Shown here one piece after another: positions 12,468 through 35,374 of a stretch of DNA of 64,000 bases; the stretch's first letter is position 1, and each line of letters begins with the position of its first letter. The position numbers and the translations under genes are program-made. The notes below the pieces were generated by a model. It saw nothing but the letters and a program-made list of their open reading frames with translations. It was not told where the DNA came from and ran no database searches. Origin of the DNA: Candidatus Altimarinota bacterium (GTDB lineage Bacteria; Patescibacteriota; Gracilibacteria; UBA4473); NCBI GenBank assembly GCA_965231215.1, contig OZ246423.1, positions 1,216,001-1,280,000 of the forward strand, written 5' to 3'.

Positions 12468-14879
12468 ATGTCAAAACCTCGACGTGTGCCGAACGGACTT
12501 TCTGATAACCCACCTGATGGGTTTGATTTTGGTGCAGGTAGAGGCGGACAAGCTGATGCCTTTAATGTACCTTTTGATGCAGGAGATCCAAGACGTATAC
12601 TAGATGGAAAGGCTTTGAAAGAGTGGGGTGATCAATTAGAGTTTTTTGATAAAGAGGAAACGACTCCAGGAGAACGAATCCGTTTGGCTCAAAGAGTTGA
12701 AGGTAAAGCTGATCGTGAAAAACTTCAGCAAGAAGTTTTGCGTGATATAGAGCGGTATATAAATAAGGAAGGAAGAAAGACACTTGCCACAGAAACTTAT
12801 TTAGCCGCACTCCAAGATCCAAACTCAGGTATTGGAACTCCAGAAGAAAGAGCTCTTGCCGCTCAACTTGCCAAAGGTACTGGTACGGCTCGACAAAGAG
12901 AAGAACTTGAACGAGTTATTCGTGGAACATTTGGTAACATTGAAAACCTTACAGAAACCAATCAAAAACTAGCTGAATACCTTCAAAAGTTAGAAACATC
13001 AGATCCGGTTAAATACCAGGAACTGATGCAGAAAGTTTCTACCAAAATGGCAGATAACTTAGATAGGTCTGGGATCAAGCCGAAGTCTTTTTATAACGTT
13101 TTAGTAGGAGAATTTGAAGGACTACAAAATCATGTCAGCAATACCATGTCAGAGTTTTCTGGTTTTGGAAAAGAACAGATGATTTCGACCGCTACTATTG
13201 GTGGTGCCACAGGGGCTATAATGTTTTTAACCGGTAGCCCACATGCTGGAAAATGGTTGGCAGCTGGTACAGCCGTTGGACTTATTCTAAATAATACAGC
13301 CGCGACTCAAGCCACTATAGAAATTGGTAATACCGCTGCTAGAGCGGTTCCATCCACACTCGGATTACTTGCGCGAGGAGGATTCCACTTAGCTGATGGG
13401 TTTAACGGACTTATTATCGGAAATCCAGATGCACTTGTAGGAGGGACTAAGGACTTTTTGACCAAAGATCTTTCTCGGTTTGCTCGGGACACATTGCAAC
13501 CACTTAAATTTGGTGGAGAGCTACCTCGGGGATACAGGGAACTCCAAGAAATCCGGACAGATTTCCTGGTTAAAAGTGTAGCTCAAGCTCCAGCACAAAT
13601 TAAACCTGTGCTTGAGTACATTATTAAAGTTCAAAAAAATGAACAAATTACACACGTTCCGACTAAAGCTCAAATAGAAGCTGCGGCTCAATTCCTGGCT
13701 CAAACAGAACACCTTGAAGTTACGGCAAAAGCCAACAAAGCTGAAATAATGACCAAGTTTATGACTGGGACGCCTTTAAGTGATATTGAGAAAAGACAGT
13801 TATTGATTTCTGAATATAATGACTTGATTCGCTCTTCGTTTAATCCAGAAGATAAATATGAACATAAAGACTTTTTAGCTCAAAGTGAAGTTTTTTATAA
13901 GGCTCTAAAAGAAGCTAAATCACAAGTAAGTGCTGGAAGTCTTAGTGCTATAGGTATAAATCAGGCTATTCCGAGTTCTAATTTAAGTAGTATTGATTTC
14001 ACGGTAGATAAAAAGAAAATTGAAGCCGCTTATGCCAGCATTTCAGCTGAGTATAACAAGCTAGGTATTAGTGATAGACCTCTGAACCTTATGGATTTTG
14101 CTGGGACTAAAGGTATTTTTGTGATTTGGTTTATGCTTAATGTTATTTCTACAGCTTGGACTGGGGGAGTTACCGCCTACCAAGCCAATAAAGCTAGAAA
14201 GAAGAAAAAAGCCGAAAGTATTGATACTGAAACACCCCTTAAAAATAAAAAACTCCGTGAAAATATTAGATCGGCCGCTAAAACCAAGAAAGTGGATGAA
14301 ACTTATAAAGCTATGACTAAAGGTAGAGATAAGAATGCTATAATTTCTTACAGCAAACCGGTGGCGGCAGCTTTAGCTGGAAAGACCTTTGCTGAAAGTG
14401 ATGAATCTTATCAAGAATTTGTAAGGTTGCTTAGCCGAGATACAGTGAGTGCAGTTGAATTAAGAAACAAGTTTTTTGAGGCTCTCCGACCTGTTCGAGA
14501 TGCTGCGGAACTCGAAAAAAAAGAGGCTATTGATAAGCTCCAAAACTTTCATGCCATTAGATATAAGCTTGATAAATTTGCAAAACTTCGACAAGCTCAT
14601 GGATCTGGGGCAACGGGAAAAATTAGTATTAATGGAGAATCTTTTAAAGTTAAAAGCAAAAATAACTGGATTTCACGATTTTTTAGTTTTATTACTCTTC
14701 GGTCAAACTTAGATAATGCTTCGGGAGAGTCTCCAAAAATTCCAACAGACGAGGGAAATTTACAATTTAAAGTAGAAGATGGAGTCTTTAAGTATAAAAT
14801 TGGCGAGGATCAAAAGGTTTATATTGAAGTAAAAGCAAATGAGTTTGAGGCTCAGAGCATCGAAAAGATTAAAAAATAG
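12468..14879 (+). CDS. Large hypothetical protein, 803 aa, with Gly/Ala-rich hydrophobic segments
   Basis: Long ORF with host-like codon usage; no recognised domain. Confidence 0.8.
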   Translation: MSKPRRVPNGLSDNPPDGFDFGAGRGGQADAFNVPFDAGDPRRILDGKALKEWGDQLEFFDKEETTPGERIRLAQRVEGKADREKLQQEVLRDIERYINKEGRKTLATETYLAALQDPNSGIGTPEERALAAQLAKGTGTARQREELERVIRGTFGNIENLTETNQKLAEYLQKLETSDPVKYQELMQKVSTKMADNLDRSGIKPKSFYNVLVGEFEGLQNHVSNTMSEFSGFGKEQMISTATIGGATGAIMFLTGSPHAGKWLAAGTAVGLILNNTAATQATIEIGNTAARAVPSTLGLLARGGFHLADGFNGLIIGNPDALVGGTKDFLTKDLSRFARDTLQPLKFGGELPRGYRELQEIRTDFLVKSVAQAPAQIKPVLEYIIKVQKNEQITHVPTKAQIEAAAQFLAQTEHLEVTAKANKAEIMTKFMTGTPLSDIEKRQLLISEYNDLIRSSFNPEDKYEHKDFLAQSEVFYKALKEAKSQVSAGSLSAIGINQAIPSSNLSSIDFTVDKKKIEAAYASISAEYNKLGISDRPLNLMDFAGTKGIFVIWFMLNVISTAWTGGVTAYQANKARKKKKAESIDTETPLKNKKLRENIRSAAKTKKVDETYKAMTKGRDKNAIISYSKPVAAALAGKTFAESDESYQEFVRLLSRDTVSAVELRNKFFEALRPVRDAAELEKKEAIDKLQNFHAIRYKLDKFAKLRQAHGSGATGKISINGESFKVKSKNNWISRFFSFITLRSNLDNASGESPKIPTDEGNLQFKVEDGVFKYKIGEDQKVYIEVKANEFEAQSIEKIKK

Positions 14880-24441: not shown

Positions 24442-24484
24442 ACCTTTAACTTAGTAGAGGAGGTATGATAAAGGTGCCTCATTT

Positions 24485-24512
24485 AGTTAACACAATTTAT
24501 ATTGTTTTAATT
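24485..24512 (+). repeat. attL: dif-like 11-6-11 site
   Basis: agttaacacaa-tttata-ttgttttaatt; the arms are inverted repeats (9/11); the last 17 bp recur at 34132-34148. Confidence 0.75.
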
Positions 24513-24566
24513 TATACGATAGAGAGTGACTAGTCTTATTCTCTATTTCTTTATTTTTTTAGTCAC

Positions 24567-24857
24567 ATGAAAGACAAAGTTCTTTCTTCTCTCGCTTCCG
24601 TTCGGGCTAAAGCCTTTGCCATTCCTATGATGTTTGGTTTAGGTCTTCTTGGTGTAACCTATGCCCAATCCGCACCACCAGCCTCACTTATCACCTTGAG
24701 TGATACTGAGGAAACTGCTCTCTTCGATATTTATACCCAAGTTCTTGCTTGGCTTAAAGCTTTCGTTGTTGAGTTCAATTTGGTTATCGCAATCGTTATT
24801 GCGACAATCATTATTCTTGGCTTTATGTCACGATTCACTCGAAGAAAACGAGTTTAA
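24567..24857 (+). CDS. Putative major coat protein (pVIII-like)
   Basis: 33-aa signal ending TYA|QS, acidic N-terminus, amphipathic then hydrophobic helix, basic C-terminus RFTRRKRV; ~63 aa mature. Confidence 0.8.
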   Translation: MKDKVLSSLASVRAKAFAIPMMFGLGLLGVTYAQSAPPASLITLSDTEETALFDIYTQVLAWLKAFVVEFNLVIAIVIATIIILGFMSRFTRRKRV

Positions 24858-24866
24858 AAAAACAGT

Positions 24867-24888
24867 AGAAGCCTTCGGGCTTCTTCTT
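24867..24888 (+). terminator. Terminator-like hairpin after the coat gene
   Basis: agaagcc-ttcg-ggcttct followed by tctt. Confidence 0.7.
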
Positions 24889-24979
24889 GGGTGTTCCCCT
24901 CCTTGGCGCGAGGCTCTTGGGAACCCCTTAGAAAAAGTCTTCCGCGCCATCTTCTACATACCTTTTAACCATTACTATT

Positions 24980-25213
24980 ATGAAAGTCGAATTTTCCATC
25001 ATCCATCAAAAGGATATGGGTGAGAAAACCATGTTTTATTGCCTTGATCCTGATAGCGAAGTTGTCGCTATTAAAATTGATAACTCTTTATTGAAGAAAT
25101 TTTATGATGAATCTAAAAAGCTTATTTCTCTTTCTTACCTAGAGATTAAGCGTATCCGCAAGCCAGACTTTGGCTTTGTTAGTCAGGTGGGTATTTATGC
25201 CCCTAAAAACTAG
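24980..25213 (+). CDS. Small soluble phage protein (possible ssDNA-binding pV analogue)
   Basis: 77 aa, beta-strand-like pattern, located in the prophage; function inferred only. Confidence 0.55.
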   Translation: MKVEFSIIHQKDMGEKTMFYCLDPDSEVVAIKIDNSLLKKFYDESKKLISLSYLEIKRIRKPDFGFVSQVGIYAPKN

Positions 25214-25258
25214 TTCACACTCTTTTGCTTGTGTGTGTATTTTTAACCAATTTTGAGA

Positions 25259-25501
25259 ATGCAAGACCTTATTAACAATTTCGATTTTTTCGAGATCACG
25301 GTATCTCCCTTTGAGAACATCTTGTATTCTCAATTTTTGGTTGATTTCCTATTTAACGGTGAATTTGTTTATTTGTTTGCTAACTTATTTATTTTAGCCT
25401 TTATTTTTTCTCTTATCTCTCTCGTTCCAATTGTCATTATGCTTTTCTTTAAATGGCTCTTTTGGGACTGGATTGCTTTTTATTTACATAAAGTTTTTTA
25501 A
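25259..25501 (+). CDS. Small hydrophobic phage protein (minor coat candidate)
   Basis: ~80 aa with a long TM stretch; stop overlaps the next start (TAATG). Confidence 0.6.
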   Translation: MQDLINNFDFFEITVSPFENILYSQFLVDFLFNGEFVYLFANLFILAFIFSLISLVPIVIMLFFKWLFWDWIAFYLHKVF

Positions 25502-26352
25502 TGAAGTCTTTTTTTGACTCTTTATCATATCAGTTATTGCTGGTTTTTATACTAGTTCTTTTTTTCGTTGGGCATCCCGTTTCTAAAGTGAATGCTCAAT
25601 CTCCTAATTGTTCTTCTGATCCTAATATTGGTGTTTCTGGTTGTACTCAATCTGAGTGTTCTTCTCTCGGTGCTTACTGGAATGGCTCATCCTGTGAACC
25701 TGCTGTTTTGGGATGTACAAACTCTAATTCTACTAATTATTCCTCAAATGCTAACACTAATGATGGTTCTTGCTCTACTTGTAATACTATTGATAGGTCT
25801 GGGTGTTCCCAATCCGGTTGTTCAAGTACTGATGGTTTCTGGGATACTTCTGATGTTAGTAACCCTTATTGTCGTGCTAATACACAAGGCTGTACTGATA
25901 TAAATGCAGTAAATTATGATTCTTCTGCCACGACCAATGACGCATCTTCCTGTCTTTATTGTGAGCCTGATGATCCCGGCAATTGTCAAGATCAATCTTC
26001 TTGTGAAGGCGTAGGAGGGCTTTGGTACTCAAACACTTCTACTTGTGGTCAAGATGTACCAGGTTCTACTACTGCTCCTGACCCAGAACAATCACAGTAT
26101 TATGCTTCTTCTGCTTCAGCTGGTTACTTTGAAGCTTTTGAATCTCGTTGTGTTTCGCTCGATGAATCATTTGTTTGTGATCGCTGGGCTTTTGATTTAT
26201 CAGAAGACTTTTTGAAATTTCATATAAGTAGTATTTACAACTCTATCTATAACGCTGTAGGTACATTACTTATTATCACTCTCTCTTTTTTCTTGGTTGT
26301 TCAAATTTTAAAACGACCGATCAAAGCTATTTTTGGTAACTCTAAATTATAA
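25501..26352 (+). CDS. Cys-rich exported phage protein with C-terminal TM anchor
   Basis: Signal peptide (VNA|QS), two GCT...NY...A..ND..C repeats, C-terminal TM and basic tail. Confidence 0.8.
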   Translation: MKSFFDSLSYQLLLVFILVLFFVGHPVSKVNAQSPNCSSDPNIGVSGCTQSECSSLGAYWNGSSCEPAVLGCTNSNSTNYSSNANTNDGSCSTCNTIDRSGCSQSGCSSTDGFWDTSDVSNPYCRANTQGCTDINAVNYDSSATTNDASSCLYCEPDDPGNCQDQSSCEGVGGLWYSNTSTCGQDVPGSTTAPDPEQSQYYASSASAGYFEAFESRCVSLDESFVCDRWAFDLSEDFLKFHISSIYNSIYNAVGTLLIITLSFFLVVQILKRPIKAIFGNSKL

Positions 26353-26353
26353 A

Positions 26354-29300
26354 ATGAAAGCTTTTTTTTATCGTGCTTCGAGCAAAAATTTTCTAAAAAA
26401 TTTTTTGAGAAGTGCGAAACTTTGTCTTTTCGCGCTTCCGCTACTTTTCTCCGTTGCTTTTGCTTACCCTGTAAATAAAAGTAATGGTCAGACTACTATT
26501 TATCAGGGGTCTACTGTTAATTTTTTAGTCAGTACTTCTGATTTAGGTTTTACTCCTGCTGGTATTACTTGGTGGAGTGATTACTATTCTACTTCTCCTC
26601 GTTATGGAGATATTGTCGGTGGTTATGTTTATATTGATGGCGTACAATATGGCACTTCAAGCATATATTTCCCGGGCTTTGGTTTGCCTGTGACTTACAA
26701 TACTACAGGGGCTAAAATTCCTTATTTTTGTTTCCATACTCAAGGTTTAAATCAGCCAGGTGATACTCAAAGCTGTTTTACTTATAACTCGAACAATGGG
26801 GACCTTCCTACTAACAGTTATATAAATGTTATTTCTTATTCGGCTGGTAACCCTGATTTAAAGGTTAATGTGAAAAATATGGTTGATGGCTCTTTGTTTG
26901 AGCCAGGTGAAAACTTCCGATATGTGATTGAGGTTCAAAATGATGGTGGTGTAGAGTTAGGAACAACTCCTAGGATTCAATTCTATTGGAAAAAGGACAA
27001 TCGTTCTTATACACCTGAATATAAGTTTGGTTTTCTTGAACTTCCCAACCTCTCTGCTGGTCAAAAGAAACAGTACCTTTTAACCTTTCACGTTCCTGAT
27101 AATATTCCCGGCGGGAAATACTATTTATACTACGCTTTAGACTCCTTAGCCGAGGTTACTGAATCTTATGAAAATAATAATCGGTATTACGAGGAAATTA
27201 CTGTTTTAGATACTGATCCAGTTTATGCTGAACTTTTCAATGATTCTTCCTTAACTCAGCTTTCTACAACTACAGTTCAGCCCGGTCAAACTCTCCGATA
27301 TTACCCTTATTTTCGTAATACTGGTGATATTGATGCTAACTCCTTTCGTATACAATTTTATTGGCAAAAGGATACTCGATCCTATCAAGATCAATATAAA
27401 TTTGGTTATGCGACTGTTCCGGGAATTGTAAAACAAGGAGTTTACACAAAAGAGTATGTTTTTAATATCCCTGAACATACTCCACCAGGCACCTATTATC
27501 TTTACTATGTGATAGATTCTTTAAATCAGGTAGATGAAAATAATGAAAACAATAATCGTTACTATGCAACGATTACAGTTGAAGATGATACCGCTAACAA
27601 TAAACCCGATTATATAAATGACACCGGCCAAAGCGCTATATCTTCACAAAATTTAAATCCCGGTGATACTTTTTATTACGAACCTTATTTTTTAAATGTA
27701 GGTAATGCAGATGCTACTCGAGATGCTAGTGTCTATTTCTATTTTGGGAAAGATCGTATTTATGATTATGACTATCTTTTTGCAACTTCAACTATCCCCT
27801 CTCTTAATAGAGCACAGGCTCATAATCCAACCTTAAATTTTACTGTTCCACAGTATACACCACCAGGTACCTACTATCTTTACTATGAGATAGATTCATT
27901 TGATCAAATTGCTGAAGAAAATGAAAACAATAATCGTTACTACATTGAACTAACGATTAATTCAGACAATCAAACATCTTTGCCTGATCTTTTGGTGAAT
28001 GAATCATCTTCCCCAATTGATACTACTGTTTTTTTCCCCGGTAAGATATTTCGATACTACCCTACCTTTGTTAATGCCGGTGAAACTGCCTTAACCCGTT
28101 CTTTTCGTGTTTCTTTTTACTTGGAACCAAGTTCTAATGGGCAGAGTTTTCACTCTGATTTTTACCTTGGAAAAGCTGATGTAATCCCACTGGTTGCCGG
28201 TCAAACAAAACAGTACACTTTGACTTTTAAAGTCCCTGAAGATTATTCCCCGGGAAATTATAATTTTTATTATAAAATCGATTCTCTAGATCAAATTTCA
28301 GAGGAGGATGAAAATAACAATCATTACTCTATTTCTCTGGTTATTGATGATCTGTCCGGGGTTCAAGGCTGTACTGATCCAGATGCTTTAAACTACGATT
28401 CTTCTGCTGAGGTTGATGATGGCTCTTGTGTTTTGCCTGGTAAAAATTTATTTGCTTCTTTCCCAGCTTTTGACTTGAACATATTTGAAAGTGAGCCTCC
28501 GAATTATAATCAAGGAGACACTTTTAGTTTTTTCGTTGATATCTTTAATGATGGTACAGTCGATACTGAACCTACTACTATAAATTTTTATGTTAATCAT
28601 TCGGATGTTTCAGCCTCTCAACGATATTCTTCAAATTTAATAAATACCGAGTCTGTTCCCGCCTTGGTCGCTGGTGATACATCTTTTTCTAGCTTTTCTT
28701 ATACGGTTCCAGGTAATTTTCTTCCAGGTACTTATATAATTTCTTGGTCTCTTGATCCCAATAATCTCATTTCAGAAACTAATGAATCTGACAATAAAGA
28801 TTTTGCAATTTTTACTGTTGGTGATCCAGATGGAAATGTAGTTATATCTGGTTGTACCGATCCTTATGCGTCAAATTACAATCAATCGGCAAATGATGAT
28901 GATGGTACTTGTTTCTATGATGATGATTCAGGTGATAATTATTATTCAGAGCCTCCTGCTGATGATGTTTCTTTTACAGACTATGAAAATGAGTGGTGGG
29001 GTGACTACTTCCAAGGTGATTTACAAGATGACATAGATCAAAACTACAATTTAGATGTTGAAGACTATTTTGCAGATGCTTCTTCTGAGTCTTGTACTTT
29101 AAAAATTGGTGTTGCTGATACCACTGTTTTGTCTGATATAAAATTTGTCACTCATGTTTCGAGTTTAAGTAAAATTCTACCACTATCTTCTCCCGTTTCC
29201 TCTACCGGAAATTTTCAAATGTGTAAAGATGGTTTTTGTTCTGCCAATTTTACCGCTAATCTGACTGGCTATGTAGAATCTGGTCTTTATGCTCGTAAAA

Positions 29301-30922
29301 CAAGTAATATTGTAGCTTTTAATCCGTCTGCTTATGGATGGTCACATGGTACTATAGACTACACTTATACAACTGGTAGTTGTACTTATACCGGCTCTTT
29401 TGAGTATGTCCCAAGTAGCTACTTTGTTCCAGGTTGTACCTCTGTGAATGCAGAAAATTATAATGGTTCTGCAACTGTCGATGATGGTTCTTGCCGTTAT
29501 CCAAAAGAAGGGTGTCTTGATCCCGACGCTCTCAATTATGACCCCACAGCAACAATAGCGAGCAACGAAGCCTGTACCTATACCCCCTCGGCGGATTCTT
29601 CTTTCGGGTTTTCTATCGCGGATGGCTATGTTATCCCTGTTGGGAAGTCGTTTAAGGTCAATTACTGGTTTAATATTGATGAAATTGACTTTACCCCAGA
29701 AGAAGCTCGTTTTTACAAAGATTATCGTTTACAAACCTACATTTCACAAAAATTATATGAAGATGATCTACTGGACCAACGCGGTCTTGAGATATATGAC
29801 ACTTATGTATCTCGTGGTGAGTTTACACCTCGCCTATGTTTAATTAGTTCTACAGAGTCTAGAACTCTTTGTGTTTTCGTGGATGGCGAACAGAACTCTC
29901 TTTACGCTCAACATGTTACTGTTGTTGAAGACTCAGGAAAAGAGGGATGTTTAAATCCTCTAGCCCAAAACTATGATCCGTTAGTTACAATTTCAGATGG
30001 CTCCTGTATATTCTCGGGTTCCTCATCTACTCGCTTTTTTGGCAGAAAGTTTCAAACAGTTTTTGATACTGACCACTTAGAGGTTGATTTTTCTACTGAG
30101 AGAATTGAGGGTAAATGGGTTCAGTCTCTTGATTTTCCTAGTTTTGGTCCAACTCCAAATTTAGATTATGATGCATACCTTTGTTATACAAAAATTAACG
30201 AGGAACTTGATATAGAAGTACCAGAAGTTTGTGTTAAACTTGATTCCTTCGCTTATACAGAAGTTTCAGGACAATTAGAACTCCCCTTGCCTTCGAATTT
30301 CCAAGCAGAAGCTAACGCTTGTACAGATCAACAAGTTTTTAGAAGTTTCTATGTTCGCCATGTTTCTAACCCAAATGATCGGGTCGAAATGAATTTTTAC
30401 AATTCTTGGGAATCTGATACTCCTCAACAGTTGCCTAGTTCTCTCTGTTCACAGAATTCTGATATCTCGATTTATATTGATCCAGATGATGAGAATGCTT
30501 CTTCTCTGGGGATATTTGGTTTAAAAGATATAAATTTTGATCTTCCCGACTCAACACCAGCATTTTTTCAGTTTTTGGTTAAAGGCTATTCTGTCGAAAT
30601 TCCATATGTAAATTTTACTTTTAGCATTCCTGGCGTGGAATCTTTTTTAAGAGGGTTGTTTTGGTTTGGTAGCTTTACCTTTAAGCTTTTTGAGCAAATT
30701 CCATTCGTTGGTGATGTCTATAACTTAATGGCTCCAGTGCCATCCGCACAACTAAATTTTCCTCAAGTATTTTTTGGCGTAGAACTTGATAAACCTTCTT
30801 ACAATTCTGTTCAGTATGCTCGATTTGGTGATGATTTTTCGGACTTTTTTGAAAACTTAATTTGGTTTGTGCTAACTTTGTACTTTTTATCACTTCTTTT
30901 TTCCTATTTCTTTAAAACTTAA
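26354..30922 (+). CDS. Giant adhesin/attachment protein (pIII position): about 5 CARDB-like Ig domains plus 5 GCTD-type Cys repeats, C-terminal TM
   Basis: Signal peptide (AFA|YP), repeated PDL...N.G...PG.YYLYY.IDS...E.NENNN units, GCTDPDALNYDSSAEVDDGSC-type repeats; ATG at 26354 follows the previous stop. Confidence 0.85.
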   Translation: MKAFFYRASSKNFLKNFLRSAKLCLFALPLLFSVAFAYPVNKSNGQTTIYQGSTVNFLVSTSDLGFTPAGITWWSDYYSTSPRYGDIVGGYVYIDGVQYGTSSIYFPGFGLPVTYNTTGAKIPYFCFHTQGLNQPGDTQSCFTYNSNNGDLPTNSYINVISYSAGNPDLKVNVKNMVDGSLFEPGENFRYVIEVQNDGGVELGTTPRIQFYWKKDNRSYTPEYKFGFLELPNLSAGQKKQYLLTFHVPDNIPGGKYYLYYALDSLAEVTESYENNNRYYEEITVLDTDPVYAELFNDSSLTQLSTTTVQPGQTLRYYPYFRNTGDIDANSFRIQFYWQKDTRSYQDQYKFGYATVPGIVKQGVYTKEYVFNIPEHTPPGTYYLYYVIDSLNQVDENNENNNRYYATITVEDDTANNKPDYINDTGQSAISSQNLNPGDTFYYEPYFLNVGNADATRDASVYFYFGKDRIYDYDYLFATSTIPSLNRAQAHNPTLNFTVPQYTPPGTYYLYYEIDSFDQIAEENENNNRYYIELTINSDNQTSLPDLLVNESSSPIDTTVFFPGKIFRYYPTFVNAGETALTRSFRVSFYLEPSSNGQSFHSDFYLGKADVIPLVAGQTKQYTLTFKVPEDYSPGNYNFYYKIDSLDQISEEDENNNHYSISLVIDDLSGVQGCTDPDALNYDSSAEVDDGSCVLPGKNLFASFPAFDLNIFESEPPNYNQGDTFSFFVDIFNDGTVDTEPTTINFYVNHSDVSASQRYSSNLINTESVPALVAGDTSFSSFSYTVPGNFLPGTYIISWSLDPNNLISETNESDNKDFAIFTVGDPDGNVVISGCTDPYASNYNQSANDDDGTCFYDDDSGDNYYSEPPADDVSFTDYENEWWGDYFQGDLQDDIDQNYNLDVEDYFADASSESCTLKIGVADTTVLSDIKFVTHVSSLSKILPLSSPVSSTGNFQMCKDGFCSANFTANLTGYVESGLYARKTSNIVAFNPSAYGWSHGTIDYTYTTGSCTYTGSFEYVPSSYFVPGCTSVNAENYNGSATVDDGSCRYPKEGCLDPDALNYDPTATIASNEACTYTPSADSSFGFSIADGYVIPVGKSFKVNYWFNIDEIDFTPEEARFYKDYRLQTYISQKLYEDDLLDQRGLEIYDTYVSRGEFTPRLCLISSTESRTLCVFVDGEQNSLYAQHVTVVEDSGKEGCLNPLAQNYDPLVTISDGSCIFSGSSSTRFFGRKFQTVFDTDHLEVDFSTERIEGKWVQSLDFPSFGPTPNLDYDAYLCYTKINEELDIEVPEVCVKLDSFAYTEVSGQLELPLPSNFQAEANACTDQQVFRSFYVRHVSNPNDRVEMNFYNSWESDTPQQLPSSLCSQNSDISIYIDPDDENASSLGIFGLKDINFDLPDSTPAFFQFLVKGYSVEIPYVNFTFSIPGVESFLRGLFWFGSFTFKLFEQIPFVGDVYNLMAPVPSAQLNFPQVFFGVELDKPSYNSVQYARFGDDFSDFFENLIWFVLTLYFLSLLFSYFFKT

Positions 30923-30924
30923 TA

Positions 30925-31167
30925 ATGGGGACTTTTATAGATTACTTTGTTTCTGTTTTTAAAAAGTTTGTACTTATAACTATTTTTCTGGTTGTTTATA
31001 AAACCTTCTTTGAATCTCATGTTCAACAGCTTTTCGACTTCTTTCAATTTTATTTCTCACTGATATTTCATGGTTTTGGGAAGTATGAAACTTTTAAATT
31101 ACTAGCTGATATATTTTTGCTCTTGTTAACATTGAGGTTTTTCAACTGGCTACTTGCTACTAAATAA
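30925..31167 (+). CDS. Small membrane protein (pVI-like position)
   Basis: 80 aa, hydrophobic, between the pIII-like and Zot genes as in inoviruses. Confidence 0.7.
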   Translation: MGTFIDYFVSVFKKFVLITIFLVVYKTFFESHVQQLFDFFQFYFSLIFHGFGKYETFKLLADIFLLLLTLRFFNWLLATK

Positions 31168-31191
31168 TCTTAATTTTTTAACTACTTTATT

Positions 31192-31998
31192 ATGTACGGT
31201 TTAACTGGATATTTTGGTTCAGGGAAAACTTTGAATATGACAAAACTTCTTTTAAGAGATCATCAAGAAGGGAGATTTGTTGTTACAAATTATACAACTT
31301 CGTTTTCTAATGTGGTTGTAGGCTCTTTGCCTGAATTCGTAAAAATTTTAGAAGAAATATTTATTCTAAAAAATCATGGAAAGGAAATTGGTGATGTTAT
31401 TTCTCAAGTTGAGAAACCTTCGGGCTTTATATCAAAGTCATTAGGTCGTTCTACCAATTACCAAAAAATTTCAATAGGTCTTGATGAGGCTGGTATTTAT
31501 TTTAACTCTCGAGCATTTGCTGAATGGAAAAATTATCCCTATCTAGTGGATTTTATGCTCCAATGTAGAAAGCTTGATGTTCGTATTTACTATACGGTTC
31601 AACATCCTTTATATGTCGATGTCAATTTTAGACGTGTAACTGAAGTTTGGCGCTTATATAAAAAACTGCCATTTATACCGGCTTCTCATTCTTATGATTA
31701 TGTTCTAGACCCTGAAAATCCTGACTATAGAAATCCAATTGATAAACTTGGAGGTTCTTTTTCTTGGCTTGGAGAGCAAGAGGTTTGGAATTATTACGGA
31801 ACTAAAGAATTGGCTATGAAATATAAGCCAGATGATCTTAAGGAAGATTATCAATTTATATTAAATTCTAAAACTGGTAACTATTTTCGTAGATTACCCA
31901 TTCATCGCAGATTTTTTCCTAATTTTGTCGGTGTTTTTGACCGACCTCAAGCCCGCTCGCGGGCTGTTGGTCGGTTAACTCAGGGAACGACTGAATAA
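31192..31998 (+). CDS. Zot/pI-like morphogenesis ATPase
   Basis: N-terminal Walker A GYFGSGKT, VVTNY, Walker B IGLDEAG.YFNSR, QCRK....YTVQH...VD..FR. Confidence 0.92.
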   Translation: MYGLTGYFGSGKTLNMTKLLLRDHQEGRFVVTNYTTSFSNVVVGSLPEFVKILEEIFILKNHGKEIGDVISQVEKPSGFISKSLGRSTNYQKISIGLDEAGIYFNSRAFAEWKNYPYLVDFMLQCRKLDVRIYYTVQHPLYVDVNFRRVTEVWRLYKKLPFIPASHSYDYVLDPENPDYRNPIDKLGGSFSWLGEQEVWNYYGTKELAMKYKPDDLKEDYQFILNSKTGNYFRRLPIHRRFFPNFVGVFDRPQARSRAVGRLTQGTTE

Positions 31999-32008
31999 TG
32001 TCGTTCCC
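31940..32008 (+). other. Tandem GC-rich hairpins, candidate replication origin or packaging signal
   Basis: accgacc..agcccgc/gcgggct..ggtcggt (31940-31975) and a perfect 9-bp stem gggaacgac/gtcgttccc (31983-32008), upstream of rep. Confidence 0.55.
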
Positions 32009-32034
32009 CCATCTTATTTTTTAATCAAATAAAA

Positions 32035-32187
32035 ATGTCTAAAGAATATAAAACTCCTTCTCAATTTATATCTGATTTTAAATCTACTTCTGATCCAGAA
32101 GAACAACTAAAAATCGCTAAGAGGTATGCAAATCAAAATTATAAAAAAGGTTTGATGCACACCTTTAATAAAAAATTTAATCGTTAA
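32035..32187 (+). CDS. Small basic phage protein (50 aa)
   Basis: MSKEYKTPSQFISDFKSTSDPEEQLKIAKRYANQNYKKGLMHTFNKKFNR; ends 4 nt before the rep start; below the ORF-track cutoff. Confidence 0.5.
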   Translation: MSKEYKTPSQFISDFKSTSDPEEQLKIAKRYANQNYKKGLMHTFNKKFNR

Positions 32188-32191
32188 AAAT

Positions 32192-33160
32192 ATGAAATCT
32201 AAATACCTTTATTTTGGTTTAGACTTTCTTCGTCTAAATTTCAAGTCTAGTTATAAAAATATTAGATTTGATAATTATTTTTCTGGACTATCTGCTAACT
32301 CAAATTTTAAAACGGTAGATTGGTTCGGTCTTACTTTTAACTGTACTTTCACTCAAACCGGTAATAAAAAAATTCTTATATTTAATTATAATGATTTTCC
32401 TGTTTTTGTTTTGGAAGAATTTTTAGATGGTGGGATTAATACTCATACATCTTATGTAATTCAGTTTTATAGTGCTTTTTTTTATATAAAAGAACTGGAT
32501 TTATTTTTGTTCGCTTTTTTAAATTATTATGGTCGTTACTGCTATATAACTCGCTTCGATATAGCTTTGGATGTTCCCTTGTCCATAAGTGATTTCGTTT
32601 CAAAAGGGTATTCTACTAAGTTTCGAAAGGGGGCTAAGTTTGGTTTAAATGAAAATACTGGTGAATTTGAAACTTGGTATCTCGGGGCTAAAGGATGCTC
32701 AAATAAAAAACACTTTATAAGAATCTATAACAAACTTTTAGACTCAAAGAAAAAATCAAAAATGATGCTTTTTTGGCAATACTTTGATTTTGAGGATGTC
32801 ACCAGAATTGAAGTACAGGTTAATTCTCAATCCTGTTCTGTCTTTGGTGCAATACCGGATAATATAACAGATATTAACTTTCTCGGTTCTGTTTTTAAGT
32901 CTTGTGCTGTAAATAAATCAGGCACTATTTTTAATCACTTAGAGGATTTAGATTTTATAAATTCTTCTTCTCTAATTGCTTATAAAAAGCCTAAAAAATC
33001 AGATATTATTGACAAACTTTCTTACGCTAAAACCATGCTTGGCTATGCTCAAACTTTATTGGATCAAGGTTTTGATCCTGTTTTGTTTTTAAGAGATAAT
33101 TTGAAAGATAATCAACCCAAGTATTCCAATGATAATTCCTCCAATCATGTACCAGTTTAG
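32192..33160 (+). CDS. Rolling-circle replication initiation factor (Rep_trans family)
   Basis: GLDFLR, ITRFDIALD, ETWYLG, FIRIYNK, TRIEVQ motifs. Confidence 0.9.
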   Translation: MKSKYLYFGLDFLRLNFKSSYKNIRFDNYFSGLSANSNFKTVDWFGLTFNCTFTQTGNKKILIFNYNDFPVFVLEEFLDGGINTHTSYVIQFYSAFFYIKELDLFLFAFLNYYGRYCYITRFDIALDVPLSISDFVSKGYSTKFRKGAKFGLNENTGEFETWYLGAKGCSNKKHFIRIYNKLLDSKKKSKMMLFWQYFDFEDVTRIEVQVNSQSCSVFGAIPDNITDINFLGSVFKSCAVNKSGTIFNHLEDLDFINSSSLIAYKKPKKSDIIDKLSYAKTMLGYAQTLLDQGFDPVLFLRDNLKDNQPKYSNDNSSNHVPV

Positions 33161-33565
33161 AGGCATTTCTTCGTTATCTTTTAGTTCTAATTTTTCTATT
33201 ATCTCCGATTTCCCGATACACATTATCCTCATATTTGCACATTCTTTTCTTGTATAACTGTCTATTTCCAATGTGGTAAACATTATTCCTTTGTTTATTC
33301 CGTCTCTCAAAAGACAACCTCCTAAACACCTTACTTCTTTAACTGGTAAGGTGTTTAGTTTTTTTGTACCTTTATTCCATTTTTTACATTGTGTGTATAT
33401 TTTTTCTCCTCCAAATTCTGATATGACATCTACTCCCCTATCTCCGAAAGATTTAGTCACATAAATTTTTTTGTGTCCCATTAGCTCTAAAAATTCTTTA
33501 GCAAAAAATTCAAACTGTCTTGGGGTTAGGCTTTTGACTTGTTGGAATGTCTTATATTTAGTCAT
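33089..33565 (-). CDS. Mrr-like restriction endonuclease domain with C-terminal TM helix
   Basis: LTPRQFE...MGH...VTKSFGDRGVDVI...TQCKKW (Mrr_cat D..QxK); tail WYMIGGIIIGILGLIIFQII. Confidence 0.85.
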   Translation of the reverse strand: MTKYKTFQQVKSLTPRQFEFFAKEFLELMGHKKIYVTKSFGDRGVDVISEFGGEKIYTQCKKWNKGTKKLNTLPVKEVRCLGGCLLRDGINKGIMFTTLEIDSYTRKECANMRIMCIGKSEIIEKLELKDNEEMPLNWYMIGGIIIGILGLIIFQIIS

Positions 33566-34043
33566 CTTTGAAAATTGTCCTATACATGTGGTCTATACAT
33601 TTTTCAGCTGTTTTTGATTCTGCCTTTTCGTTCATAAAATCTTTTAAGGCAGTAATTTTTCTTTCGATCTCAGGTGTTTTTTCGATTTGTATGTATTTTT
33701 TACCCATTTTGGTATTTTTTTGAATTTCCCGGATTTTAAAATTAAATCCTTCTTTCCGTATTATATATTCTTTCTTGGTCTTTCTTTCAACTCCATATTT
33801 CTGTTCTCTAAAATCTTCATCATCTATATACGATGTATATTCTCCACAATTTTCACATTTTAACTTCCCTACTTCTTCATCGTATCTTAAATTTTTATGC
33901 CTAAACTCTCTTTCAGGGTAAGGGAATTTATATCTTTCTTTGTAGCATTTTTCGCATCTGGCTTTTACAATATTGATGTTAACCATTTTGTAGGGTTTTA
34001 AGTTTAACAAATCCCTACTAACTGCTTGACGATTATGTGTCAA
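33558..34043 (-). CDS. Zn-ribbon-containing basic protein, possible phage regulator
   Basis: CEKC and CENC pairs; overlaps the start of the Mrr-like gene. Confidence 0.6.
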   Translation of the reverse strand: MTHNRQAVSRDLLNLKPYKMVNINIVKARCEKCYKERYKFPYPEREFRHKNLRYDEEVGKLKCENCGEYTSYIDDEDFREQKYGVERKTKKEYIIRKEGFNFKIREIQKNTKMGKKYIQIEKTPEIERKITALKDFMNEKAESKTAEKCIDHMYRTIFKDD

Positions 34044-34120
34044 ATTTTATTTTAATATTAATTAATGTAAATTTAATATTAAATAGTATACTTTTAATAT
34101 GAAAATGCTTGTTTTCAAGT

Positions 34121-34148
34121 GAATATTATTGTTTATATTGTTTTAATT
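34121..34148 (+). repeat. attR: degenerate left arm plus shared 17-bp core
   Basis: gaatattattg-tttata-ttgttttaatt; 34132-34148 is identical to 24496-24512. Confidence 0.75.
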
Positions 34149-34231
34149 AAAAACACACTTAAAACCAGCCTATCAAAAAATTACTACATAAAAATTTGGA
34201 AGCCTTATTCATTCTTCTTTATAATCAACCT

Positions 34232-34636
34232 ATGAAAAAAAATAAAAACTCACAACCGATGACTATTTTATATTCCTTTGTACTGTGGACTACCTCTGTT
34301 GTAGTTTCGGTATTTTTTTCTGTATTTATAGTTCAGATTTATATACTTGGAAGCTTTAACATTGATAAAAGCGCTCGAACTGAAAGCTTTAATAAAAAAG
34401 TTCAATGTAAAGGGCTTGAATACCAAATTTTTGGAATTATCCCTGAAGATAAAAAAGCAGGCTTTCAGGGTATGGTTTATGATCCACGCCTAGATACTTG
34501 TGTGCTTGGGAATATTGTAGAGATCAAGGATGACGCAGGGGAAATCAAAAATATTTTTGTTGTTGAAGACGTGCTTAATAGAAAAATCTTGAGCCAGCAA
34601 GAAGTCCAAACAGCACCTCAACAAGTCCTTCAATAG
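34232..34636 (+). CDS. Single-TM hypothetical protein
   Basis: ATG at 34232 lies 6 nt after TATAAT; N-terminal TM; two Cys. Confidence 0.7.
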   Translation: MKKNKNSQPMTILYSFVLWTTSVVVSVFFSVFIVQIYILGSFNIDKSARTESFNKKVQCKGLEYQIFGIIPEDKKAGFQGMVYDPRLDTCVLGNIVEIKDDAGEIKNIFVVEDVLNRKILSQQEVQTAPQQVLQ

Positions 34637-34720
34637 GATTTTAATATAAAACAATAATTCCTTTTGACATTGAGTTTGAGCAGAATAAAATCGCGCTCGT
34701 ACAATATTTGATTGTAAAAT

Positions 34721-35374
34721 ATGGCAATAAAAAACGTTACCGCAACTCGTATGACTATGCTGGGTCTAAAAAATCAGTCTAGTGTCGCTAAAAGAGGACA
34801 CAAATTACTGAAAGATAAGCAAGATGGTCTCATGCAAGAATTTTTAGCTATTGTGCATAAAGCCAAAGCTCTTCGTATGGAAGTTGAAGTTGCTATTAAA
34901 GCCGCTAATAATAGTTTTTTACTAGCTCAGGCAAGTATGCCAAAAGAAGTATTAGAAAACGTGCTTTCTAATCCTGCACAAAGTCTAAAACTAGAGGTAA
35001 AAACAAAAAATGTAATGTCGGTTCGTATACCGGTATTTCAACTAAAAACAGAAGGAAACGCTCTTCACTACGGTTTAGCTCAAACCAGAGGTGAACTAGA
35101 CCTGGCTATTTCTGAGTTTGCTAAGGTGTTTACCCTGCTACTAGAACTTGCTGAAATTGAAAAAGCCGCTGAAAATTTAGCCCTTGAAATTGAAAAAACT
35201 CGTCGAAGAGTAAATGCGCTTGAACATAGATTAATTCCAGATCTCGAAGACACGCTGAAATTCATCAAGATGAAACTTGGTGAAGCTGAGCGTTCAGCAA
35301 TTGTGCAAGTGATGGCTATTAAGAATATGATTGAAGCTCAAGAAGCTGAAGCTCAAATGAAGCAGGTAGCATAA
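34721..35374 (+). CDS. atpD: V/A-type ATP synthase subunit D
   Basis: TRM.M..LK......RGHKLLKDKQD, NVMSVRIP, EIEKTRRRVNALEH. Confidence 0.95.
   Translation: MAIKNVTATRMTMLGLKNQSSVAKRGHKLLKDKQDGLMQEFLAIVHKAKALRMEVEVAIKAANNSFLLAQASMPKEVLENVLSNPAQSLKLEVKTKNVMSVRIPVFQLKTEGNALHYGLAQTRGELDLAISEFAKVFTLLLELAEIEKAAENLALEIEKTRRRVNALEHRLIPDLEDTLKFIKMKLGEAERSAIVQVMAIKNMIEAQEAEAQMKQVA

Follow-up and report, generated by a model that had tools for sequence, protein, structure and literature searches.

An inovirus-like prophage without a recombinase gene at a putative dif site in the Gracilibacteria

The stretch of DNA analyzed in this study, hereafter the window, comprises 64,000 nucleotides of Candidatus Altimarinota bacterium (assembly GCA_965231215.1, contig OZ246423.1), a tiny uncultured bacterium of the Candidate Phyla Radiation (CPR), class Gracilibacteria. 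Its genome, here termed G000, is one contig (C1) of 1,326,059 bp with 39.9% G+C, of which the window covers C1:1216001-1280000. Between a gene for a glutamine amidotransferase (GATase)-like protein and the gene for V-type ATP synthase subunit D (V-ATPase D), the window contains what its gene content identifies as an inovirus-like prophage, that is, one of a filamentous phage with rolling-circle replication, 9.6 kb in length (window 24513-34148) and carrying no recombinase gene. The prophage abuts a 28-bp near-palindrome of 11-6-11 geometry, two arms around a 6-bp spacer. Collectively, our analyses suggest that this target is very probably the chromosome-untangling (dif) site of the host lineage, and that the prophage probably entered it by Xer-type integration. 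The comparisons draw on a family set of 43 genomes, 33 of them of high quality. Genomes G001-G004 belong to the same genus as G000, and G004 is a single contig of 1,295,315 bp; G014 and G019, the latter also a single contig, represent other genera. Site variants and gene neighborhoods were compared over 33 sites or loci of relatives.

The prophage and its borders

Exact copies of the 17-mer TTTATATTGTTTTAATT bracket the phage genes (Table 1). There is no further match to it with up to two mismatches in the rest of the window, and a count over all 1,326,059 bp returned just these two exact copies, the next best match having two mismatches; the repeat is thus not common in the genome. The bracketed segment measures 9,636 bp, its G+C content (0.28-0.36) lies below that of the flanks, and its skew is reversed. 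The left copy forms the spacer and right arm of an intact 28-bp site, the arms of which are complementary at nine of 11 positions, while the 11 bases preceding the right copy, GAATATTATTG, agree with the left arm at only three of 11, so that the right copy consists of spacer and right arm alone. Ten open reading frames (ORFs) of at least 75 aa lie between the repeats, and none matched an integrase, a transposase, or a serine recombinase in Pfam or PHROGs. The first-pass annotation of this DNA, which had proposed an exact 17-bp repeat around the phage genes, a complete inverted-arm site on the left only, and an element lacking its own recombinase, is therefore borne out in each of these respects. 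Nevertheless, the repeat by itself, AT-rich and only moderately improbable, is suggestive rather than decisive: it is one of two noncoding exact direct repeats of at least 15 nt in the 30 kb between window positions 14000 and 44000. It is carried beyond chance by two findings described below, an empty site in a relative and conservation of the site across the family.

Table 1. Features of the prophage and its flanks, in window coordinates
Feature	Position	Strand	Evidence or remark
GATase-like host flank gene, 218 aa	23785-24441	+	NCBIfam GATase matches; homolog adjoins the empty site in G001-G004
Terminator-like hairpin, 3' of the GATase-like gene	24460-24480		Hairpin search
Predicted attL, intact 28-bp 11-6-11 site AGTTAACACAA-TTTATA-TTGTTTTAATT	24485-24512	+	Host arm, then spacer and arm common to the phage
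Left 17-bp repeat copy, spacer plus right arm	24496-24512	+	Exact match
96-aa protein with hydrophobic segment and basic C terminus, in the major-coat position	24567-24857	+	No Pfam or PHROGs family match
77-aa ORF in the position of the inovirus single-stranded DNA (ssDNA)-binding protein	24980-25213	+	No Pfam or PHROGs match; assigned by placement only
82-aa membrane protein, candidate minor coat protein	25253-25501	+	No family match
283-aa secreted Cys-rich protein with C-terminal membrane anchor	25501-26352	+	Cys module common with the next gene
Secreted protein of 1529 aa containing five CARDB domains, at the place of the adsorption protein (pIII)	26333-30922	+	PF07705, E-value 1.4e-51, five stretches
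80-aa membrane protein in a pVI-like position	30925-31167	+	No family match
Zot/pI-type morphogenesis ATPase, 268 aa, an inovirus hallmark	31192-31998	+	PF05707, 24.1 bits (cut-off 20.3); phrog_1675 'protein I of M13', 8.4e-9
Rep_trans-fold rolling-circle initiator, 322 aa	32192-33160	+	Pfam Rep_trans, 16.1 bits, below cut-off; fold by Foldseek
Mrr_cat nuclease-domain protein, 158 aa, with hydrophobic C-terminal tail	33089-33565	-	PF04471, 1.9e-14; homolog in the G014 phage
161-aa CxxC...CxxC zinc-ribbon protein adjoining attP, candidate regulator	33558-34043	-	38% identity to the G014 phage homolog
Three operator-like palindromes TTTAATATTAA(A), overlapping a promoter-like site of the leftward genes	34051-34104		Putative function
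Predicted attR: phage-derived degenerate arm GAATATTATTG, spacer TTTATA, arm TTGTTTTAATT	34121-34148	+	Right 17-mer at 34132-34148
V-ATPase D host flank gene	34721-35374	+	NCBIfam NF001543, 1.6e-71

A related prophage provides a second view of this arrangement. Only two of the 43 family genomes, G000 and G014, contain a Zot gene, and in G014 it belongs to a prophage of ~6.4 kb located directly upstream of V-ATPase D. That phage encodes a 52-aa coat-like protein, a 463-aa protein, Zot (48% identity; 37.1 bits against PF05707), Rep (40% identity), an Mrr-like protein (L051:15913-16320), and the zinc-ribbon protein, and no integrase or transposase family was found among its ORFs tested. It is flanked by a 12-bp exact (22-bp imperfect) repeat. 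When read in the orientation of the phage, both prophages have a full site with inverted arms at the coat-gene end, and a degenerate arm followed by spacer and arm at the zinc-ribbon end. An IMG/VR search with Rep yielded no further members of the group; genome contigs returned just the contig of G014 and a weak fragment (L117), and metagenome contigs only a duplicate of the G014 contig. No phage-gene remnants were present in 38 loci of other genomes, nearly all of them around dif-like sites.

The initiator was assigned by structure. Its homologs in a large protein database number 16, every one from metagenome-assembled genomes or metagenomes. An AlphaFold (AF2) model built on a 13-sequence alignment reached a mean predicted local distance difference test score (pLDDT) of 83.7, and its top six Foldseek matches in the PDB were all Rep_trans initiators, RepDE/RepSTK1 (4CWC, 4CWE, 4CIJ), with E-values up to 2.8e-9, a probability of 1.00, and template modeling scores of 0.43-0.52; the seventh match was weaker by seven orders of magnitude. 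An earlier model from a two-sequence alignment (pLDDT 47.6) was discarded, and searches of PDB sequences with Rep profiles returned nothing useful. A relative of this Rep also occurs in a different setting: in P0012, a 436-aa protein on a 130-kb metagenome contig, the N-terminal ~220 aa correspond to the Rep of this phage family and continue in frame into the C-terminal catalytic half of an Xer-like recombinase (PF00589, residues 256-423). This fusion may reflect a deletion that joined a prophage to a neighboring xer gene.

The length of the element, 9.6 kb, falls within the roughly 5-15 kb expected, and the 96-aa protein of G000, like the 52-aa protein of G014, has a hydrophobic core and a basic tail with no family match; the former is thus a candidate coat protein on the grounds of position and composition. 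The 283-aa and 1529-aa proteins have in common a repeated ~25-aa Cys module of the type G-C-T-D..A.N-Y-D...D-D-G-S-C, which is accompanied at the DNA level by a 44-nt repeat, D2. The gene in the adsorption-protein position is, at 4.6 kb, very large for a 9.6-kb filamentous phage, and its G014 counterpart encodes the 463-aa protein. The Mrr_cat protein of G000 matches the PADLOC candidate system PDC-S02 and the ZorD nuclease domain, and in both phages it could be a superinfection-exclusion or defense gene. The zinc-ribbon protein has no family in Pfam, PHROGs, or PADLOC, and its Atlas look-alikes, all below 0.9, serve as leads only. A complex prediction for this protein with the host Xer gave a score of 0.00 ("no answer"), which is evidence neither way. 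The palindromes upstream of the leftward genes suggest a putative lysogeny-control module beside attP.

The target site in the host family

The insertion model predicts that relatives free of the phage have an uninterrupted site. In G004, a single copy of the site, ACTTAACACAA-TGTATA-TTGTTTTAATT, lies between homologs of the GATase-like gene and of V-ATPase D, and no phage is present. G001-G003 are organized like G004, with only ~100 bp from the site to V-ATPase D. These empty sites have the boundaries that had been predicted, and, taken together with the occurrence of Zot in two of the 43 genomes, they show that the element is an insertion with those boundaries. The site is intergenic, lying between the terminator-like hairpin and the prophage or, in relatives, the next gene.

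The DNA between the site and V-ATPase D varies even within the genus: it spans ~100 bp in G001-G003 (L030-L032), 573 bp in G000 (window 34149-34720), and ~870 bp of unrelated sequence in G004 (L033). In G000 it includes a 146-aa membrane ORF with no homolog in G001-G004. Such spacing DNA beside dif may be a hot spot for leftover cargo; the segments of G000 and G001-G004 contain no dif-like remnant.

With up to three mismatches, the 28-mer was found in six of 40 relatives, all within the host family and in one copy each, while a reversed-pattern control gave none, and there were no matches in 16 genomes from other families of the class. A 24-nt core, again with up to three mismatches, is present in 37 of the 43 family genomes and in 30 of the 33 of high quality, essentially as a single site per genome, the exceptions being G048 and G046, each with a second site. 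Conservation ends precisely at the 11-6-11 footprint, beyond which the flanking DNA is unalignable. Within the footprint, the left arm has the same inner nine bases, TTAACACAA, in every site (33/33), and the right arm has five variants among the 33 sites: TTGTTTTAA (18), TTGGTTTAA (11), TTGTGTTAA (2), TTGTTCTAA (1), and TTATGTTAA (1). Although the search pattern favors conserved sites, this asymmetry between the arms is real, because mismatches were permitted anywhere. The spacer likewise occurs in five versions: TATATC (14), TGTATA (11), TGTATC (5), TTTATA (2), and TATACC (1). TTTATA, the version found in the prophage repeat, is limited to G000 and G049 (2/33). This spacer, which varies from species to species, is the likely specificity determinant.

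The neighborhood of the site is less constant than the site itself. V-ATPase D lies within 1.5 kb in 22 of the 33 loci and is absent from 11, three of which are at contig ends; it is missing beside the site in genera g3 (three genomes) and g10 (two genomes). In three of the 22 loci (G020, G024, and G049) the site is inverted relative to V-ATPase D. The variable neighborhood and the inversions mean that a function of its own fits the site better than a role as an operator of V-ATPase D. A search for rivals in the terminus third of G000 yielded 51 further near-palindromes of 11-6-11 form, just one of which is better conserved in G004. Thus, the suggestion of the first-pass annotation that the element may reveal the Xer target of its lineage gains support: the candidate is an 11-6-11 site, single-copy, detected in 37 of 43 family genomes, and situated in the terminus region.

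A rival palindrome at position 33179 of G000 was rejected, being a three-copy repeat found in two of the 43 family genomes. This 28-nt hairpin-like repeat has copies at C1:33179-33206, 243007-243034, and 882983-883010 in G000 and a single copy in G004; the conserved xer gene described below has one of the copies immediately downstream of it, and the repeat is probably of the terminator type. The two genomes with additional sites are also of note. In G048, two full dif-like sites reside on different large contigs, C11:173078-173105 (L120, ~10078) and C3:113598-113625 (L121, ~9998). The C11 site adjoins genes for a large serine recombinase, a C5 DNA methyltransferase, and an ATPase, and may therefore be the border of another island. 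The second site of G046 is a perfect palindrome on a 4.5-kb contig.

For comparison with a known dif, that of Escherichia coli was located as the best match to the family site variants in a 10-kb stretch of NC_000913.3; it occupies positions 1590750-1590777, between yneL and hipA. Depending on orientation, the site of G000 agrees with it at 19 or at 17 of 28 positions. Only the variant of G048 stands out: it agrees at 22 of 28 and is identical over the spacer and one arm (17/17).

The host recombinase, the terminus, and competing explanations

G000 has two tyrosine recombinase (PF00589) genes, as the search for host Xer genes proposed with the first annotation revealed, and they differ sharply in their distribution. 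The first encodes an Xer-like protein of 326 aa (C1:883171-884148; ~307 aa from the conserved start), which has an ortholog in all 43 family genomes at 50-73% identity; its catalytic residues R, K, H, R, H, and Y do not vary among the ten sequences aligned, and its nearest solved structures are XerA (5HXY) and XerD (1A0P). The second, an accessory recombinase of 311 aa (C1:818215-819147; L008:1465-2400, minus strand), has a real ortholog only in G024 (45% identity) and a partial one in G016; elsewhere in the family, its sole match is the ortholog of the 326-aa gene. Its neighbors are small ORFs, and it probably belongs to another mobile element. Against NCBIfam, both recombinases score about equally with the XerC and XerD models and below the equivalog cut-offs; for the conserved enzyme, the highest scores come from the XerC, XerD, and XerA models and a far lower one from XerS. 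All five near-complete relatives examined, G004, G019, and G017 (single contigs) together with G014 and G009, have exactly one tyrosine recombinase, as do 40 of 81 genomes in a class sample (exactly one match). Two conserved paralogs, as expected of a lineage with XerC and XerD, were not found. FtsK with a gamma domain is present in the host. With one conserved Xer, the arrangement therefore appears to be of the single-recombinase kind, with Xer acting on a dif that is nearly palindromic, a reading that fits the symmetry of the site and suggests that one Xer enzyme would serve the dif of this lineage. The earlier proposal that the element exploits a host tyrosine recombinase thus holds up at the level of sequence, with one correction: a conserved Xer-like enzyme and FtsK gamma are present, but a single predicted Xer takes the place of a XerC/XerD pair, and its catalysis of the reaction is deduced.

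An alternative genetic code was considered for G000 and rejected, as its long conserved genes run without interruption and TGA terminates 58 of 552 long frames. In the class-level search, Xer genes of families f11, f21, and f24 contained 1-10 in-frame TGA codons, consistent with TGA-recoded lineages; the host-family genes have none.

With respect to chromosomal position, the cumulative GC skew of G000 is lowest near 660 kb and highest at 1.285-1.29 Mb, and both the keto skew and 1,069 polar 8-mers (chosen far from the terminus) flip where the GC skew peaks. The G000 site, at 1.2405 Mb, is ~37 kb (~2.8%) from the skew maximum once the prophage is removed, at the edge of the low-polarity zone. 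In G004, the skew maximum is at ~245 kb and the site at 280.5 kb, on the side equivalent to that in G000, and in G019 the site is inside the flat terminus zone, ~35 kb from the maximum. Position was also judged in G022 and G017, and G041 allowed no clear placement. Hence the site is terminus-proximal but offset from the skew switch: the comparison with cumulative GC skew, which had been proposed as a check, places it near the maximum and not at it, and the reservation expressed in the first-pass annotation about the terminus location was well founded. An offset of 35-40 kb does not exceed the distances published for dif sites, whether validated or predicted (PMC9765430, PMC3025954): the validated dif of Legionella pneumophila is 35-43 kb from the skew inflection, with distances of up to 79 kb in other species (PMC9765430), and the threshold used by Kono et al. 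for a site "near" the terminus is 5% of genome length (PMC3025954). The dnaA gene of G000 (C1:1106201-1106692) is ~446 kb from the skew minimum and is therefore no marker of the compositional origin in this genome.

Several observations weigh against the assignment of the site as dif and of a host Xer as the enzyme. Six of the 43 family genomes, G014 included, lack the core at up to three mismatches. The site is off the skew switch by ~35-40 kb (2.7-3.6% of the genome) in G000, G004, and G019; in G022 the offset is ~85 kb, ~8% of a 1.0-Mb genome and beyond the 5% threshold (PMC3025954), and in G017 it is 45-90 kb (200 kb examined). The positional agreement of G000 and G004 is, moreover, not independent, because these genomes are syntenic. 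Similarity to E. coli dif does not identify the G000 site with significance, as eleven sites in G000 reach 19 matches and one reaches 20, and it therefore adds little for this genome; since both arms resemble a XerD arm, neither arm can be assigned to XerC or XerD, nor can the arm copied by the phage. The junctions of the G014 prophage are strongly diverged from the family core, and the host-side arm at its distal junction (attR) fits poorly, which could reflect decay after long residence. Finally, the 311-aa second recombinase of G000 could in principle act in trans.

These points give substance to an alternative in which the palindrome is a conserved site with another role, for example an operator of the V-ATPase genes or the target of a different recombinase, and the phage was integrated by another enzyme such as the 311-aa recombinase. 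Distances of 35-85 kb from the skew maximum, the frequent V-ATPase D neighbor, the nonsignificant match of the G000 site to E. coli dif, and the mere presence of a second PF00589 gene would all agree with it. We regard it as unlikely, however. The V-ATPase context is missing in two genera and the site is inverted at three loci; the 311-aa protein is nearly confined to G000 and G024, whereas only one tyrosine recombinase is encoded by G014, where a related prophage occupies the same locus; the site is single-copy, has the 11-6-11 footprint, and lies in the terminus region of every genome judged; and one natural variant is identical to E. coli dif across spacer and arm.

Two further alternatives concern the mechanism. 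Tyrosine-based rolling-circle Reps are nicking-joining enzymes, and the element encodes a Rep_trans-fold initiator; the repeat might then be an origin-like nick site rather than an Xer crossover. Such Rep-mediated integration seems quite improbable, given that the repeated sequence coincides exactly with the spacer and one arm of a site that is conserved in phage-free host genomes, that the phage itself occurs in just two of 43 family genomes, that no origin-like hairpin centered on the 17-mer was found, and that the layout matches Xer-type att sites (PMC4246890). Integration could also be Xer-dependent but of the CTXphi type, in which attP is an ssDNA hairpin and a single strand exchange is resolved by replication, making the process irreversible. 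The element is an ssDNA rolling-circle phage like CTXphi, and this is the best-studied mechanism among integrative mobile elements that exploit Xer (IMEXs) (PMC4246890). We nevertheless give it very little weight: the element differs from the hairpin attP of CTXphi because a second, inverted dif-like site was found near neither end, the arm-like repeats at 34109 and 34129 being direct ones, and the 17-bp identity spans a whole arm and the whole spacer, as in a double-stranded attP.

We therefore return to Xer-type integration of a double-stranded attP at dif. In this model, the replicative form of the phage would carry attP, GAATATTATTG-TTTATA-TTGTTTTAATT, between the zinc-ribbon and coat genes, composed of a degenerate arm, the 6-bp spacer, and one good 11-bp arm, and presumably acting as double-stranded DNA. 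Most probably, the single Xer-like tyrosine recombinase of the host would pair attP with the chromosomal dif, with strand exchange at the borders of the 6-bp spacer and the crossover within it. The predicted products are attL, an intact dif next to the coat gene, and attR, a half-degenerate site at the opposite end. Because dif would be intact at attL, dimer resolution would have kept working, and because attR is half-degenerate, excision driven by Xer and FtsK should be inefficient. From the genomic data, we infer as likely both the catalysis of integration by Xer and the function of the site as dif.

Relation to known Xer-exploiting elements and significance

IMEXs, filamentous phages among them, are already known, and a lineage's dif has been uncovered through an IMEX before (PMC4246890, PMC9765430). 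The element described here has no integrase or transposase of its own and, given the dif assignment, is bracketed by dif and a dif-like repeat, two of the properties expected of an IMEX; the third, catalysis by a host Xer, is predicted. It most resembles TLCphi of Vibrio cholerae and the gonococcal genetic island, which also lack an integrase, combine one good with one poor arm, and leave an intact dif on one side (PMC6744903, PMC4246890); known IMEX attP sites include others with a poor second arm (PMC6744903). It differs from both in that there is a single host Xer, the host is a CPR bacterium, and the element is a complete phage with morphogenesis genes and not a satellite. In a host with one Xer, the "XerD arm" has no direct equivalent. 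TLCphi requires its own Xer activator, XafT (DUF3653). No Pfam match to XafT/DUF3653 was found in either the G000 or the G014 phage, which may have an unrelated activator, for example among the two conserved genes next to attP. Phages of the VGJphi type are similar in being filamentous, ~7-10 kb long, and equipped with a single short dif-like attP that leaves two Xer-type sites after integration (PMC4246890). However, VGJphi has two good arms with spacer homology on one side only, whereas here the spacer is identical and one arm is degenerate.

The closest parallel in logic is the LME-1/XerL system of Legionella, in which an integrase-free element with a partial dif mimic revealed the dif of a single-Xer lineage; that dif also has varying gene neighborhoods and lies 35-43 kb from the skew inflection (PMC9765430). 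The XerL arms have no homology to known Xer motifs, in contrast to the XerD-arm-like arms and XerC/D/A-like enzyme described here, and LME-1 is not a filamentous phage. The Legionella case is, in addition, experimentally proven, whereas the present one is deduced from sequence. XerS/difSL, XerH/difH, and archaeal XerA likewise pair one recombinase with a dif-like site and FtsK (PMC2965235, PMC1914069, PMC5241119). Compared with the XerS systems, the enzyme here is nearer to XerC, XerD, and XerA, and the site has the canonical 28-bp length and 11-6-11 organization. Inovirus-like elements in CPR hosts were reported by Roux et al. 2019, in a paper the main text of which never mentions Xer (PMC6813254). 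The literature searched, which was limited in scope, contains no description of a dif/Xer system in CPR bacteria, although other papers or supplements could hold one. What the present study newly adds is a defined dif for this Gracilibacteria family, together with the single-Xer reading, and an inovirus of a CPR bacterium that is delimited precisely, an empty site serving as the control.

A broader proposition, which we regard as evenly balanced, is that chromosome dimers in the family, and possibly in much of the class, are resolved by just one XerC/D/A-like recombinase acting on a near-palindromic but otherwise canonical 28-bp dif with one invariant arm; that the variable spacer sets phage host range; and that the 17-bp attP is a minimal integrase-free module, perhaps assisted by a phage activator among the two genes adjoining attP. 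The prophage is one of few inovirus-like prophages of CPR bacteria with exact ends and an unambiguous host, and its target adds a case of a dif located consistently tens of kilobases off the compositional terminus. An att site of 17-28 bp that uses a host enzyme could allow integrase-free DNA insertion in CPR bacteria, for which few genetic tools exist. Furthermore, a family of uncultured CPR bacteria now has a concrete dif sequence that can be tested, and a single Xer as its candidate recombinase.

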